From Escherichia coli (GTDB lineage: Bacteria > Pseudomonadota > Gammaproteobacteria > Enterobacterales > Enterobacteriaceae), in NCBI RefSeq assembly GCF_030013595.1, contig NZ_CP122768.1: 64,000 nt of DNA, one strand, 5' to 3'. Shown here piece after piece: positions 51,449 to 54,346 of this stretch (positions are counted from its first letter, which is position 1; each line of letters starts with the position of its first letter). A model generated the notes under the pieces. It was not told where the DNA came from and searched no databases. It saw nothing but the letters and a program-made list of their open reading frames with translations. The translations under genes were made by a program, and so were the position numbers.

Positions 51449-51637
51449 TTATTTCCTTAGCACATGAAACAATGTTTGCTTTAATTCCACCCATACAATT
51501 ATGACCACTATAGACAGACAAAAGAAACTGAATGCATTGGCATCACGATCGAAACCTTCTCCGGCACTAAATCCGTAAAAGGTCATAAAAAATATAAAAA
51601 TTGCGCACTTTGCAACGTTTACAAATTTTTTCTTCAC
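51449..51637 (-). CDS. Small hydrophobic membrane protein (62 aa, two predicted TM helices), antisense to the tail operon
   Basis: GTG start 5 nt after a perfect AAGGAGG SD on the minus strand; strongly hydrophobic translation. Confidence 0.5.
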   Translation of the reverse strand: MKKKFVNVAKCAIFIFFMTFYGFSAGEGFDRDANAFSFFCLSIVVIIVWVELKQTLFHVLRK

Positions 51638-52011
51638 ACCAACCTCCTTAGTTTTGCTCAGGATACCAGATGATACTTTATTGGTGGAGTGGTGTGTGAA
51701 AACGTGTCAACGACAAACCATCCACAACTTGGACGAATGATTTAGCAAAAAGTGCTATTTTTGGTGTTTAGTGTCATAGAAAAGTGAATAGCTCACTTTT
51801 CAACATTGCATGAAACTTGCAGGAAATGTGACATTACCTTATAGGTAATTTCGGCGAAAATGCAGTAAATGTGAAACGTAATGGTTTAAACATGTCGCTA
51901 AAGTGGTTGTAAGTTAGCCTCCGAAGGATTGCTGATAGCTTTGTTATAGTATTAAATGACATTTGACATAGTTGGATACTTAGCTGTGGCTATCAAGATG
52001 GAGGTGTGTTC

Positions 52012-52455
52012 ATGCTTACTTGTTTTGATGTCGCCGACTACTTCCTGTCGCGGTGTGACGAGGATAGCGGTGACACAATCTCTAATTTAAAATTACAAAA
52101 GCTTGTTTACTATGCTCAGGGGTTTTCATTGGCGTTGCTTGGTGAGCCTCTTTTTCAGAATAAGATGGAAGCTTGGATGCATGGCCCTGTTGTCCCTGAG
52201 CTTTATCGCCGTTATAAACAATATGGTAATGGAGCTATCCCTTCTCCAGAGTCTTTTGATGCTGAAAAATTCAGCGAAGAACAGTTAGAGCTATTAGAAG
52301 AAGTCTGGGATGTTTTTGGGCAATTTTCTGCCTGGAAACTGAGGAACATGACACACGAAGAGTCACCATGGAGATCAAACTATATTGAGGGTGTTGGTGG
52401 TTCTGAAATTAGCTCTAAGGAGATGGCAGAGTACTTTGCAACTCGGATTAACTAA
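52012..52455 (+). CDS. Panacea/DUF4065-like (SocA/GepA-type) protein, putative antitoxin-type component
   Basis: MLTCFDVADYFLSRC...NLKLQKLVYYAQGFSLALLGEPLF...AWMHGPVVPELY matches the recalled DUF4065 signature; GAGGTG SD upstream. Confidence 0.55.
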   Translation: MLTCFDVADYFLSRCDEDSGDTISNLKLQKLVYYAQGFSLALLGEPLFQNKMEAWMHGPVVPELYRRYKQYGNGAIPSPESFDAEKFSEEQLELLEEVWDVFGQFSAWKLRNMTHEESPWRSNYIEGVGGSEISSKEMAEYFATRIN

Positions 52456-52459
52456 CGAG

Positions 52460-52879
52460 ATGGCAAGAAAATCTAAAAGGATTATCCCCCCTGCTGAATC
52501 TACAGGTAAGTTAAAGTTAGGGCCGCAGTCAGGGGGGAATTCAGATCAAAAGAAACCGAAATTTTCATTCTGTTACATCCAAAGCTCTCACTGCATAACG
52601 AAATGCCAAAAAGATGAGAAAGCTGGCTTAGCTGATAAATTATACAGATTAAGTCAACTAACATGGGCAGAGATTAAGCAGCAAGGTAGGCATAAGCTTG
52701 GATTTGAGAAGATTGCAAGGGGTGCAATTAAAGCTGGTATCCCCGGTCATATAACGGAAGACGTAGATCATTTCTTGGCTTTTAGATTTGATGATTTGAA
52801 AGCCATGGTTGGTTATCGTCTTGGATCGACATTTTTTGTTATATGGCTTGATAGAGAGTTCAACCTATACAAGCACTAA
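52460..52879 (+). CDS. Unknown partner protein (139 aa), translationally coupled to the Panacea-like gene; candidate toxin/effector
   Basis: ATG 4 bp after the upstream stop; basic N-terminus, Cys/His cluster, C-terminal ...GYRLGSTFFVIWLDREFNLYKH; strong terminator follows. Confidence 0.5.
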   Translation: MARKSKRIIPPAESTGKLKLGPQSGGNSDQKKPKFSFCYIQSSHCITKCQKDEKAGLADKLYRLSQLTWAEIKQQGRHKLGFEKIARGAIKAGIPGHITEDVDHFLAFRFDDLKAMVGYRLGSTFFVIWLDREFNLYKH

Positions 52880-52881
52880 TA

Positions 52882-52908
52882 AAACCCACCGTCAGGTGGG
52901 TTTTTTTG
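52882..52908 (+). terminator. Rho-independent terminator ending the two-gene operon
   Basis: cccacc-gtca-ggtggg hairpin followed by TTTTTTT. Confidence 0.75.
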
Positions 52909-52923
52909 TTGGAGATAAAATGG

Positions 52924-53127
52924 TTAACCAAATCGATCCTTAAAGCGTCTATCGCTGTTGCGTCTCTCCATTTTACTGTTGCAGTACGGACAAAGATGCT
53001 GTTTCTTTCCATCGATAGTCCATGTGAAGTACTTTTTCTTAAATCCAGCACCACAGATATCGCAACTTCTTGGTTTAAACATACTGGCTATGAAGATAAG
53101 AACAACAAATCCTATGATCCATTCCAT
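52924..53127 (-). CDS. Small membrane-anchored zinc-ribbon protein (67 aa)
   Basis: N-terminal TM helix MEWIIGFVVLIFIASMF followed by CDICG...CPYC zinc-ribbon pattern. Confidence 0.35.
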   Translation of the reverse strand: MEWIIGFVVLIFIASMFKPRSCDICGAGFKKKYFTWTIDGKKQHLCPYCNSKMERRNSDRRFKDRFG

Positions 53128-53268
53128 ATCATGTACCTGTTTTAACTTTATTTTTTGATTTTTAGGGATTAATCAGAAACTTTATCTTGCGATTAAGCAA
53201 AGCTACTAGCTAACAAAAGAGTGCGTATACAATCAATCGTTTCACATCAACCTCAACAAGGAGAAATC

Positions 53269-53454
53269 ATGACCATAGAAGAACGCCTGAACAACATTGA
53301 GTTGAACCAAACCCTGCTTGACCAGCGACTTTCAGATCTTGAGCTTAAAGATCTGGATGCGCAAATATCAGAAGCAGAAGCCAAGCTCTCCAGCTTAAAC
53401 CACCGCAAGAAGCAAATCCGCAACAGAATTACTCAGGGACGCGGAAGCCGTTGA
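53269..53454 (+). CDS. Small coiled-coil protein (61 aa)
   Basis: ATG preceded by AAGGAG SD at ideal spacing; heptad-like MTIEERLNNIELNQTLLDQRLSDLELKDLDAQISEAEAKL. Confidence 0.4.
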   Translation: MTIEERLNNIELNQTLLDQRLSDLELKDLDAQISEAEAKLSSLNHRKKQIRNRITQGRGSR

Positions 53455-53463
53455 AATCCTAGT

Positions 53464-53781
53464 CTATTTTTTCTCAGAGCTCATATTGTAATAGGTGGTA
53501 TAAATAGAGATTGATTTCTGACATGCTTCAAGAAATTGCTGCGGAGTCATCCCGAGCCTTGCTTGCTCTGTAGTAAGGAATCTCTGTAAGAATTCATTCC
53601 CACCTGGCATGTTTGTAGATTCTTGGAATATTGCCATTTGTTTGATTGCACCACACATACCAGCCATTTTAGAAGCTATCATGAGGCCTTGTATTTCATC
53701 AAAACTGCTATCGTCTGATTTTGTTTCTGCGTTAGCTATGCTCGAGAGACACAGGAGCAATAGGATAGCGATACGTTTCAT
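53464..53781 (-). CDS. Secreted/periplasmic protein (105 aa, cleavable signal peptide), co-transcribed with the mnt-like gene
   Basis: MKRIAILLLLCLSSIANA signal sequence; start overlaps the mnt-like stop (ATGA). Confidence 0.5.
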   Translation of the reverse strand: MKRIAILLLLCLSSIANAETKSDDSSFDEIQGLMIASKMAGMCGAIKQMAIFQESTNMPGGNEFLQRFLTTEQARLGMTPQQFLEACQKSISIYTTYYNMSSEKK

Positions 53782-54029
53782 TTTTCACCATTGCCATGCA
53801 TACATTTTAACTTCTCAACATCATGCTCAAGCTCTATCAGTCGCGATGCTATAGTTGCAAGATCTAGTGCTTGAATGTGTTTGTTTTTTTCGGTCCATGC
53901 TTCAAGTGCTGCGACCATCTCAGCATTTAATGAACGAGAATTAGCCTCAGCCAGTTCAATAAGACGTTCCTTTATCTCTACAGGAAGCCTCAGATTCACT
54001 TGAGGGTTTTTGTACTTACGATCAGACAT
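53778..54029 (-). CDS. Mnt-like ribbon-helix-helix repressor (Arc/MetJ family)
   Basis: 83 aa; N-terminal ...NLRLPVEIKERLIELAEANSRSLNAEMVAALEAW RHH fold; divergent from the arc/ant pair as in P22 immI. Confidence 0.7.
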   Translation of the reverse strand: MSDRKYKNPQVNLRLPVEIKERLIELAEANSRSLNAEMVAALEAWTEKNKHIQALDLATIASRLIELEHDVEKLKCMHGNGEK

Positions 54030-54104
54030 CGGCGCATCCTGAATAATTTTTTACCACAGGATATGTAGGTATCTATTGACTATCAATGCGTACCTAAATA
54101 CTAT

Positions 54105-54133: not shown

Positions 54134-54280
54134 ATGAAAGTTAAGACATTAAGGATGCCAGAATGGCTGGAAAAGGCTTTGGAGCAGTCCGCGAAAAAGG
54201 ATGATCGGTCGTTCAGTAATGAGGTATTGAGGAGACTAAAGGAGTCAGTAGCTAAGGATGGAATTGTTTGTCCAGAATGA
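54134..54280 (+). CDS. Arc-like ribbon-helix-helix repressor (48 aa; below ORF-track cutoff)
   Basis: Manual translation MKVKTLRMPEWLEKALEQSAKKDDRSFSNEVLRRLKESVAKDGIVCPE; GGAG SD upstream; precedes the ant-like gene. Confidence 0.55.
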   Translation: MKVKTLRMPEWLEKALEQSAKKDDRSFSNEVLRRLKESVAKDGIVCPE

Positions 54281-54346
54281 GTAAAGCCCAAGCTATTGCG
54301 AGTAGCTCGGGCTTAAATCGCCAGTAAATTTTGAGGAAAAACTGAC

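Follow-up and report, generated by a model that had tools for sequence, protein, structure and literature searches.

A P22-like (Lederbergvirus-type) prophage of Escherichia coli, contained in a 64,000-nucleotide stretch of contig NZ_CP122768.1 that is referred to here as the window, carries a 67-codon open reading frame (ORF) on the minus strand, the product of which we have named ZnR (membrane-anchored C4 zinc-finger protein). The ORF (positions 52924 to 53127) starts with ATG, has the translation MEWIIGFVVLIFIASMFKPRSCDICGAGFKKKYFTWTIDGKKQHLCPYCNSKMERRNSDRRFKDRFG, and contains the features that the initial annotation ascribed to it, an N-terminal transmembrane (TM) helix followed by CxxCG and CPYC motifs. 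It is located, also as described there, between an operon terminator and a coiled-coil protein gene and is antisense to both; an AGGT positioned 7 nt before the ATG is the sole Shine-Dalgarno (SD)-like element, and the ribosome-binding site is indeed as weak as had been noted. Spurious ORFs of similar size are numerous in the six-frame list of the window, such that the length of this one is unremarkable by chance and its sequence alone is no proof of a gene, but its conservation raises it above chance expectation. ZnR is predicted to be a small inner-membrane accessory protein, borne by prophages and plasmids, of an undescribed zinc-finger family.

Coding status and predicted fold of ZnR

The coding assignment is based on 45 related loci, which comprise 31 distinct coding sequences. 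The ZnR frame is the only one that is open in all 31, with the two antisense frames open in about half (14 to 16) and the other three in none. Variation falls mostly at third positions, with column entropies of 0.52, 0.28, and 1.22 at codon positions 1, 2, and 3, and pairwise dN/dS values are ∼0.02 to 0.15 among the closer pairs (dS 0.1 to 1.3); between the window copy and its homologues, pN is 0.13 to 0.22 and synonymous sites are saturated (pS 0.8 to 1.1). Indels are of whole codons and are confined to the hydrophobic anchor segment. The start codon and SD position are kept, and the homologues mostly have GGAG or AAGGAG located 5 to 9 nt 5′ of an ATG or GTG start. Loss of the reading frame in homologous loci, which had been named at the outset as grounds for dismissing the ORF, is thus not what the comparison of synonymous and nonsynonymous changes reveals, and because the frame is conserved across genera under strong purifying selection, ZnR is, judging by these sequences, almost certainly a genuine protein-coding gene of a conserved, unnamed family.

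Database annotation is divided at this locus. In E. coli UMNF18 nothing is annotated by RefSeq at the position of ZnR, and in E. coli UMNK88 the RefSeq pipeline (PGAP) calls a 102-aa ORF on the plus strand across it (locus L084, 1457-1765 [+], WP_158414285.1). These calls, together with the antisense frames that are open in some homologues, could be taken to mean that there is no gene here and that the real feature is a plus-strand ORF (52906-53145, 79 aa) or a noncoding element. Only the minus-strand frame is universally open, however, the substitutions cluster at its third positions (dN/dS of ∼0.05), its start codon and SD are conserved, and no Rfam RNA family is found over the ORF; the alternative has next to no chance of being correct and is already refuted by the substitution pattern, given which the UMNK88 ORF is very probably a shadow-ORF misannotation. 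The exact ZnR protein is present on 425 contigs, and the copies that are annotated are all named "hypothetical protein." No family of Pfam, PHROG, NCBIfam, or PADLOC covers it, these libraries returning either subthreshold generic matches to the Cys pairs or nothing, and literature searches found neither its peptide motifs nor a description of a membrane zinc-ribbon exclusion protein.

ZnR is very likely a bitopic inner-membrane protein with an N-out/C-in topology and a cytoplasmic C4 finger, as predicted from hydropathy, charge distribution, and modeling. Residues W3 to F17 have a mean Kyte-Doolittle hydropathy of 2.68, and an N-terminal helix of 15 to 17 residues would anchor the protein with only Met-Glu-Trp outside. 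This orientation agrees with the positive-inside rule, the two-residue N-terminal tail being acidic and the segment that follows the helix basic, and a cytoplasmic finger is supported by distant homologues in which the anchor separates N-terminal periplasmic-type domains from the zinc module or in which the module is enclosed by two TM segments. The Zn(Cys)4 finger would start four residues past the helix with the CxxCG knuckle (C22-x2-C25-G), followed by a β-hairpin and then by the second pair (C46-P-Y-C49) at the start of a helix; because so few residues separate it from the anchor, it would be held at the inner leaflet, directly against the cytoplasmic side of the membrane, with a conserved and very basic surface exposed. 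The part following the anchor has 14 Lys/Arg and 5 Asp/Glu residues and a pI of 9.9, and its C-terminal helix is strongly basic, polar, and nonamphipathic, always ending with the motif F-K/R-x-R/K-F-G. The residues P19, C22, K30, Y33, T35, W36, I38, G40, K41, K42, L45, C46, P47, C49, K52, M53, F62, F66, and G67 are invariant in the family and at least 90% of its members have C25, with the anchor varying freely among hydrophobic residues.

The AlphaFold2 (AF2) model, built from a 19-sequence alignment (pLDDT of 83 overall and 85 to 89 over the finger), is composed of a helix (residues 2 to 16), a loop containing C22 and C25, a β-hairpin (34 to 38 and 41 to 45), and a second helix (47 to 66) with C46-P-Y-C49 at its N terminus. 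In Grishin's classification, a treble-clef finger consists of a knuckle, a hairpin, and a helix that provides the last two ligands, and because the second Cys pair lies at a helix start, the ZnR finger is modeled with a treble-clef topology rather than as a two-hairpin zinc ribbon. The earlier description of a membrane-anchored zinc-ribbon protein therefore holds for the anchor helix and the Cys pairs but not for the ribbon topology. ZnR does have two CxxC knuckles with four putative zinc ligands, as read from its sequence, and resembles the classical zinc ribbons in having these ∼20 residues apart and in its best library matches, although all of these are subthreshold (Pfam PF09723 Zn_ribbon_8, 16.8 bits with a gathering threshold of 34.4; PF18912 DZR_2, 15.4 bits with a threshold of 27; and the archaeal MBF1 N-terminal ribbon TIGR00270, 22.8 bits with a cutoff of 110). 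In the classical ribbons, however, both knuckles are on β-hairpins of a three-stranded sheet, whereas the second pair of the ZnR model is on a helix.

The topology of the model is instead that of the treble-clef fingers of LIM, FYVE, ArfGAP, ribosomal L24e, and Bacillus subtilis CsfB/Gin proteins and of the zinc-stabilized ββα scaffold of HNH/EndoVII nucleases, from which ZnR differs in the direct fusion of its finger to a membrane anchor. Its structural neighbors are of the treble-clef and HNH classes but are weak, with all matches below significance, and its weak Pfam matches include one treble-clef family and HNH_5. We considered and rejected the idea of an HNH/EndoVII nuclease, since the HNH_5 match is poor (E value 0.079; 13.3 bits versus a threshold of 27.5) and there is no D-H motif and no conserved catalytic His or Asn, relatives having R, Y, K, V, or I in place of H44. 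Sequence searches of solved structures yield only spurious matches to C2H2 linkers (KPxxCxxCG; best E value 0.006), and a match to the Lar-like restriction alleviation family phrog_6422 (E value 0.021; 16.2 bits) spans just the Cys-pair region, which does not place ZnR among the Lar-like proteins. The association with defense or antidefense systems that had been suggested for proteins of this kind finds no counterpart here, as no link to a known system was identified and no defense family of PADLOC-DB v2 matches ZnR at an E value of ≤1.

Genomic context of the family and of the E. coli copy

Members of the family are present in Escherichia, Salmonella, Citrobacter, Klebsiella, Yersinia, Edwardsiella, Pantoea, and other genera. 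Searches with tblastn identify full-length homologues with 66 to 69% identity in the Klebsiella phages KP12, klb_E, and KpnBHU6 and in the Edwardsiella phage Edno5; there are 18 clusters in the protein database with 65 to 97% identity, 43 loci in a viral-contig scan, and 22 in a scan of species-representative genomes. The diverged viral copies mostly share one position. In 27 of the 30 diverged viral loci that could be assessed, ZnR is 0 to 37 nt 3′ of, and on the same strand as, a gene of the Arc/Mnt family of ribbon-helix-helix (RHH) proteins, and the same spacing is present in KP12, Edno5, and two Citrobacter loci, the latter coding for proteins 90% identical to that of the window. The layout is ant ← arc | mnt → ZnR, with the mnt-like gene divergent from the arc-like gene and from the ant, Rha, or KilA genes, and the neighboring Mnt-like proteins are 31 to 100% identical to three references. 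In several lineages the mnt stop codon abuts or overlaps the ZnR start (TAGATG or TGATG), and in nearly all loci a hairpin with an A-run, the stem GCCCAC…GTGGGC, and a T-run follows 3 to 20 nt past the ZnR stop. In phages, ZnR is thus normally placed at the promoter-distal end of the mnt unit in immI-type ant/arc/mnt modules. Of the four loci scanned for promoter-like sites, none has any outside the divergent region between arc and mnt, upstream of the latter, and ZnR is probably coexpressed with mnt across the family.

In phage P22, the space between mnt and its annotated terminator is filled by a gene unrelated to ZnR. This gene, orf59a, codes for a soluble 59-aa protein and was rejected as a homologue of ZnR, and because P22 has unrelated cargo here, the post-mnt position is a place for cargo in an mnt unit that is active during lysogeny; activity of Pmnt in lysogens is established P22 biology. 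ZnR is not an integral part of the immI module, being absent from P22, Emek, CUS-3, and others and present in places that have no immI genes at all.

A second context, in which an RHH antitoxin gene is followed by a RelE/ParE gene, a terminator hairpin, and then ZnR, is represented by 5.1-kb Klebsiella plasmids, Pantoea sp. A4, and Rosenbergiella. Standalone chromosomal copies are located between rbsD and dxs in Proteus, between genes for an ABC-2 permease and a U32 peptidase in Morganella, and between those for an ABC ATPase and a major facilitator superfamily (MFS) protein in Photorhabdus, with the same flanking layout in both Proteus loci and likewise in both Morganella loci; others are found in variable Pantoea islands. 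One of the Klebsiella plasmids, NZ_CP141991 (5098 bp, Rop-type; locus L082), has the RHH antitoxin, RelE/ParE, terminator, and ZnR order next to a gene for a WYL-domain regulator and a pair of tiny ORFs, of which one likewise encodes a CxxC motif, and this gene set looks like a miniature accessory or defense island. The window and loci L017, L023, L034, L039, L044, and L082 contain, near ZnR, hairpins with A- and T-runs and the stem CCCAC(C)…G(G)TGGG. They recur directly after the ZnR stop, and in several loci a half-site or a whole hairpin of this kind is also present just 5′ of the ZnR SD; these recurrent sequences may be recombination joints at which a ZnR cassette moves between operon ends.

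In the window, ZnR is part of an accessory interval between a gene-16-like ejection-protein gene and the tailspike gene, corresponding to the immI region of P22 (Table 1). The order is a 62-aa hydrophobic ORF, a Panacea antitoxin gene with a toxin-like ORF, the terminator, ZnR, the coiled-coil gene, a 105-aa gene (sp105) that overlaps the mnt stop, arc, and ant. The Panacea gene and the overlapping ORF that follows it (139 to 164 aa, ending at 52879 [+]; phrog_8366, with a weak PADLOC match to NsnC at an E value of 1.4e-5) probably form a PanA-toxin module, although the second ORF is not annotated by RefSeq in UMNF18. The hairpin after it is the plus-strand terminator of this operon and probably also ends the ZnR transcript on the minus strand, where the stem CCCACC/GGTGGG is followed by TTTTATTAG. 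The sp105 gene is the second gene, and so cargo, of the mnt unit, since its ATG overlaps the mnt stop. The facing promoter-like sites of the mnt and arc/ant genes match the layout of the annotated P22 immI region. A sar-like antisense RNA is predicted between arc and ant (54280-54346 [-]); it matches the full length of Rfam model RF00262 with 29.3 bits, below the gathering score of 43, and is consistent with a diverged regulator of the P22 immI type.

Table 1. Features of the ZnR locus, with positions in the window
Feature	Position	Strand	Basis or remarks
Hydrophobic 62-aa ORF (phrog_21338)	51449-51637	-	Directly after the gene-16-like ejection-protein gene; sieA position in P22
Panacea-domain (SocA/PanA) antitoxin gene	52006-52455	+	Domain match
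Terminator hairpin, AAAACCCACC-GTCA-GGTGGGTTTT, flanked by an A-run and, at the opposite end, a T-run	52881..52904		Plus-strand call, minus-strand reading
Inserted cassette, ∼350 bp (ZnR and 129 bp of 5′ flank)	52907..53256	-	Megablast pieces, pairwise alignment with Emek, composition
ZnR coding sequence	52924..53127	-	67 aa; homologues, dN/dS, frame conservation, AF2 model
Shine-Dalgarno element, weak (AGGT, 7 nt 5′ of the ZnR ATG)	53135..53138	-	Direct sequence reading
Frameshifted 5′ remnant of a second sp105-like secreted-protein gene	53210..53254	-	74% identity to L014:6367-6440
Coiled-coil gene, 61 aa (phrog_7586)	53269..53454	+	Always between mnt and ZnR in E. coli-type loci
sp105, gene for a 105-aa signal-peptide protein (phrog_19844)	53464..53781	-	ATG overlaps the mnt stop (ATGA)
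Mnt-like ribbon-helix-helix repressor gene	53778..54029	-	Pfam Arc PF03869, E value 3.1e-10; ∼650 nt 5′ of ZnR
Pmnt-like promoter (TTGATA-17-TATCCT)	54058..54086	-	Faces an arc/ant promoter-like site at 54076-54104 (+)

The E. coli copy differs from the family arrangement in that it is not adjacent to mnt. In the window and in all 12 E. coli-type viral loci, mnt is on the same strand but is 0.5 to 0.75 kb 5′ of ZnR, with the coiled-coil gene between them on the opposite strand. Here ZnR is presumably part of a horizontally acquired 350-bp cassette without a recognizable promoter of its own. Relative to phage Emek, the cassette is positioned exactly between the T-run of the terminator and the SD of the coiled-coil gene, and it is absent from phiv205-1 and Kapi1, each of which has one of the flanks; its G+C content is 35.7%, compared with 46.4% for the window, although the neighboring accessory genes are also AT-rich (34 to 43% G+C). 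All E. coli-type loci have the same 141 bp 5′ of the ZnR ATG, and most of this flank is the remnant of the sp105-like gene, with an SD (GAGG), a GTG start, 11 codons (MKRLIVYALFC), and a stop, L014:6367-6440 being the start of an intact gene of this type. A segment of 391 bp around ZnR is 100% identical in several porcine enterotoxigenic E. coli and other E. coli chromosomes and is found in 33 of 5,426 complete E. coli genomes. Measured against the Hendrix/Juhala definition of a moron, as summarized in PMC3594210, the cassette adds 350 bp between two genes that are neighbors in Emek and departs from the window in base composition, but its terminator is shared with the convergent operon and no promoter was found.

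Expression and possible functions of ZnR

Read-through from Pmnt is most likely the most economical source of ZnR transcripts in the window, given that no minus-strand terminator is predicted from the Pmnt-like promoter to ZnR. Such transcripts would extend from Pmnt through mnt, sp105, the antisense strand of the coiled-coil gene, and ZnR to the hairpin. The 5′ flank of ZnR was considered as a promoter region of its own and rejected, as it is a gene remnant. Whether this copy is expressed is the least certain point, and we rate the chances as even. A related but improbable alternative is that the family is real and the E. coli copy is a silent passenger, intact only because its insertion is recent. 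In its favor, there is no promoter-like site upstream, the SD is just AGGT, the flank is a remnant, convergent transcription opposes ZnR, the segment is present in few E. coli genomes, and the E. coli-type copies differ by such a handful of substitutions that selection within the lineage is unmeasurable. These differences are nevertheless synonymous with the exception of one conservative change (I11V), none of the 12 E. coli-type viral loci has a disrupted frame, identical copies of the protein recur on hundreds of contigs, and the path from Pmnt has no predicted terminator.

The explanation that we favor, tentatively and at somewhat less than an even chance, is that ZnR is a lysogen-expressed accessory protein of the moron type that acts at the face of the inner membrane. 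It would be made constitutively and at a low level in cells carrying the element in its quiescent state, and its membrane-apposed, basic zinc finger would bind a conserved ligand at the inner leaflet, with DNA or protein crossing the membrane and the cytoplasmic side of a membrane protein of the host as candidates. By analogy with HK97 gp15 and P22 SieA, this could protect the carrier cell from incoming DNA in a manner resembling superinfection exclusion, although we consider an exclusion or defense phenotype as such doubtful.

The analogy is drawn because SieA shares the genomic interval of ZnR and gp15 shows a split between phage and chromosomal relatives that is also seen for ZnR. HK97 gp15 is a 62-aa, single-TM superinfection-exclusion protein encoded by a moron, with chromosomal relatives of the YebO type (PMC3594210). 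Like the 67-aa ZnR, it has one N-terminal TM helix and a short cytoplasmic tail, is encoded by an AT-rich insertion relative to sister phages that is followed by a terminator, and has relatives that are ordinary chromosomal genes of Enterobacterales; it differs in lacking cysteines and a zinc finger and in having its own promoter, ZnR having a C4 finger and no detected promoter. Homology between ZnR and gp15/YebO was tested with hhalign and rejected (probability of 6%, with only 13 anchor residues aligned). SieA is an inner-membrane exclusion protein that blocks injection and is encoded in the interval between gene 16 and mnt (PMC10883804). It shares with ZnR this interval (from the ejection-protein gene to mnt), the strand of mnt, and the predicted inner-membrane location, but it is 164 aa long with several TM segments and has its own promoter, and homology was again rejected (BLASTP E value 1.3 over 9 residues).

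Several observations weigh against the favored explanation. ZnR has no homology to any characterized protein. No sigma-70-like promoter was found 5′ of the window copy by consensus scan or by eye, although a weak or non-sigma-70 promoter could escape such a scan, and the weak SD, the convergent gene between mnt and ZnR, and the remnant flank possibly make for poor expression. A terminator-like hairpin separates the upstream operon from ZnR on the Klebsiella plasmid and in loci L039 and L044, and the copies in L047, L070, L072, and L077 are decaying. The SieA types are mutually <30% identical (PMC10883804), and ZnR, as judged from the sequences compared, is conserved across P22-like podoviruses, contractile-tailed phages, and plasmids far beyond what is seen for exclusion proteins that are specific to an injection machinery; conservation across unrelated morphotypes and plasmids is better fitted by a conserved host target, and it could also reflect a tie to RHH circuits.

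A conserved host target is the substance of one alternative, in which ZnR, like MgrB, AcrZ, or MgtS, is a small protein that regulates some conserved inner-membrane protein or process of the host, to the benefit of the carrier cell, and has no role against foreign DNA. The cytoplasmic surface residues are very highly conserved from genus to genus, which fits this reading, as does the anchor, the variable yet hydrophobic nature of which suggests that the finger rather than the helix is the interaction surface, and the standalone copies among housekeeping genes in Proteus, Morganella, and Photorhabdus, with layouts shared within the Proteus and Morganella pairs, are what would be expected of a host gene. 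The different genera have no neighboring gene in common that would suggest a partner, however, most of the close copies sampled are on prophages or plasmids, and gp15/YebO illustrates that chromosomal relatives are compatible with an exclusion role for the phage copy; overall, we regard this alternative as unlikely, if still a serious candidate. The possible tie to RHH circuits gives rise to another proposal, that ZnR is part of these maintenance circuits and that its membrane-tethered finger binds or sequesters Mnt, a RelB/ParD-like protein, or the antirepressor, which would give immI or toxin-antitoxin modules a further level of control. ZnR does directly follow two unrelated kinds of RHH-led operon, namely mnt and RHH-RelE/ParE (NZ_CP141991, Pantoea sp. 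A4, and Rosenbergiella), with stop and start codons that abut or overlap at several mnt loci, and the association holds across Mnt-like proteins as divergent as 31% identity to the references. But P22 and most P22-like phages have immI without ZnR, the antirepressor varies (Ant, Rha, or KilA-type) while ZnR stays 63 to 82% identical to the window copy, standalone copies have no RHH gene nearby, a terminator hairpin intervenes between relBE and ZnR on the plasmid, and the window copy is itself not adjacent to mnt, and we think such a role very improbable.

The position after an RHH gene is also the usual place of a toxin, and translational coupling at some loci, the small size of ZnR, and its combination of hydrophobic and basic segments would suit a toxic membrane effector, akin to abortive-infection proteins or toxins, that is expressed at very low levels behind leaky terminators and RHH-repressed promoters; the weak SD in the window and the upstream hairpins in some loci would limit its dose. 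This is countered by the standalone chromosomal copies, which have good SDs and no adjacent antitoxin candidate, by the presence of a toxin already in the relBE context, and by the plain single-helix anchor, which has no pore-forming features and is accompanied by a soluble finger as the conserved part, and the prospect that ZnR is an effector of this sort is slim.

ZnR is among the most conserved cargo genes of immI-type antirepressor modules, and it is so across unrelated phage morphotypes and plasmids of Enterobacterales, with carriers that include Klebsiella, Salmonella, Yersinia, and enterotoxigenic E. coli. Its tight placement behind mnt was previously unremarked and is the main source of interest: if ZnR is expressed with the maintenance repressor, it would provide a lysogen-phase function, a class that includes exclusion, defense, and host-modifying factors, and in which a zinc finger held against the membrane would be architecturally new. 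A bolder proposal, that ZnR founds an undescribed, widespread family of membrane-tethered treble-clef proteins serving as promoter-distal effectors of RHH maintenance operons (mnt and relBE/parDE), and is either a new entry-exclusion or defense protein with DNA or protein at the inner leaflet as its target or a membrane-coupled RHH regulator, seems to us a long shot. As a single 204-bp gene, ZnR is easily tested by direct cloning and assay.

Distant homologues

A profile search of 1.84 billion representatives extends the family to 308 related clusters (at 50% identity), of which 80 have E values of ≤1e-10. Many of these distant homologues are 90 to 300 aa long and have a signal peptide and periplasmic-type domains (e.g., Sel1) followed by the anchor and the zinc module, and in others one TM segment precedes and a second follows the zinc module; even in the long homologues, this module is covered by no Pfam model. 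The metagenomic contigs are mostly too short for informative context, with two exceptions. In protein P0118 (locus L059, 4001-4750 [+]), the anchor-zinc module is fused to a HIRAN (DNA 3′-end-binding) domain and a C-terminal TM segment, and the gene is located at the end of a phage tail-gene cluster; the fusion hints, if faintly, at some DNA-related function. P0081, which at 230 aa includes a signal peptide as well as a periplasmic domain, is encoded on three metagenomic contigs (L053 to L055) with a conserved neighborhood, in which its gene is followed by DUF4236 and VWA genes and then, in the single contig that is long enough to include it, by a PP2C phosphatase gene.

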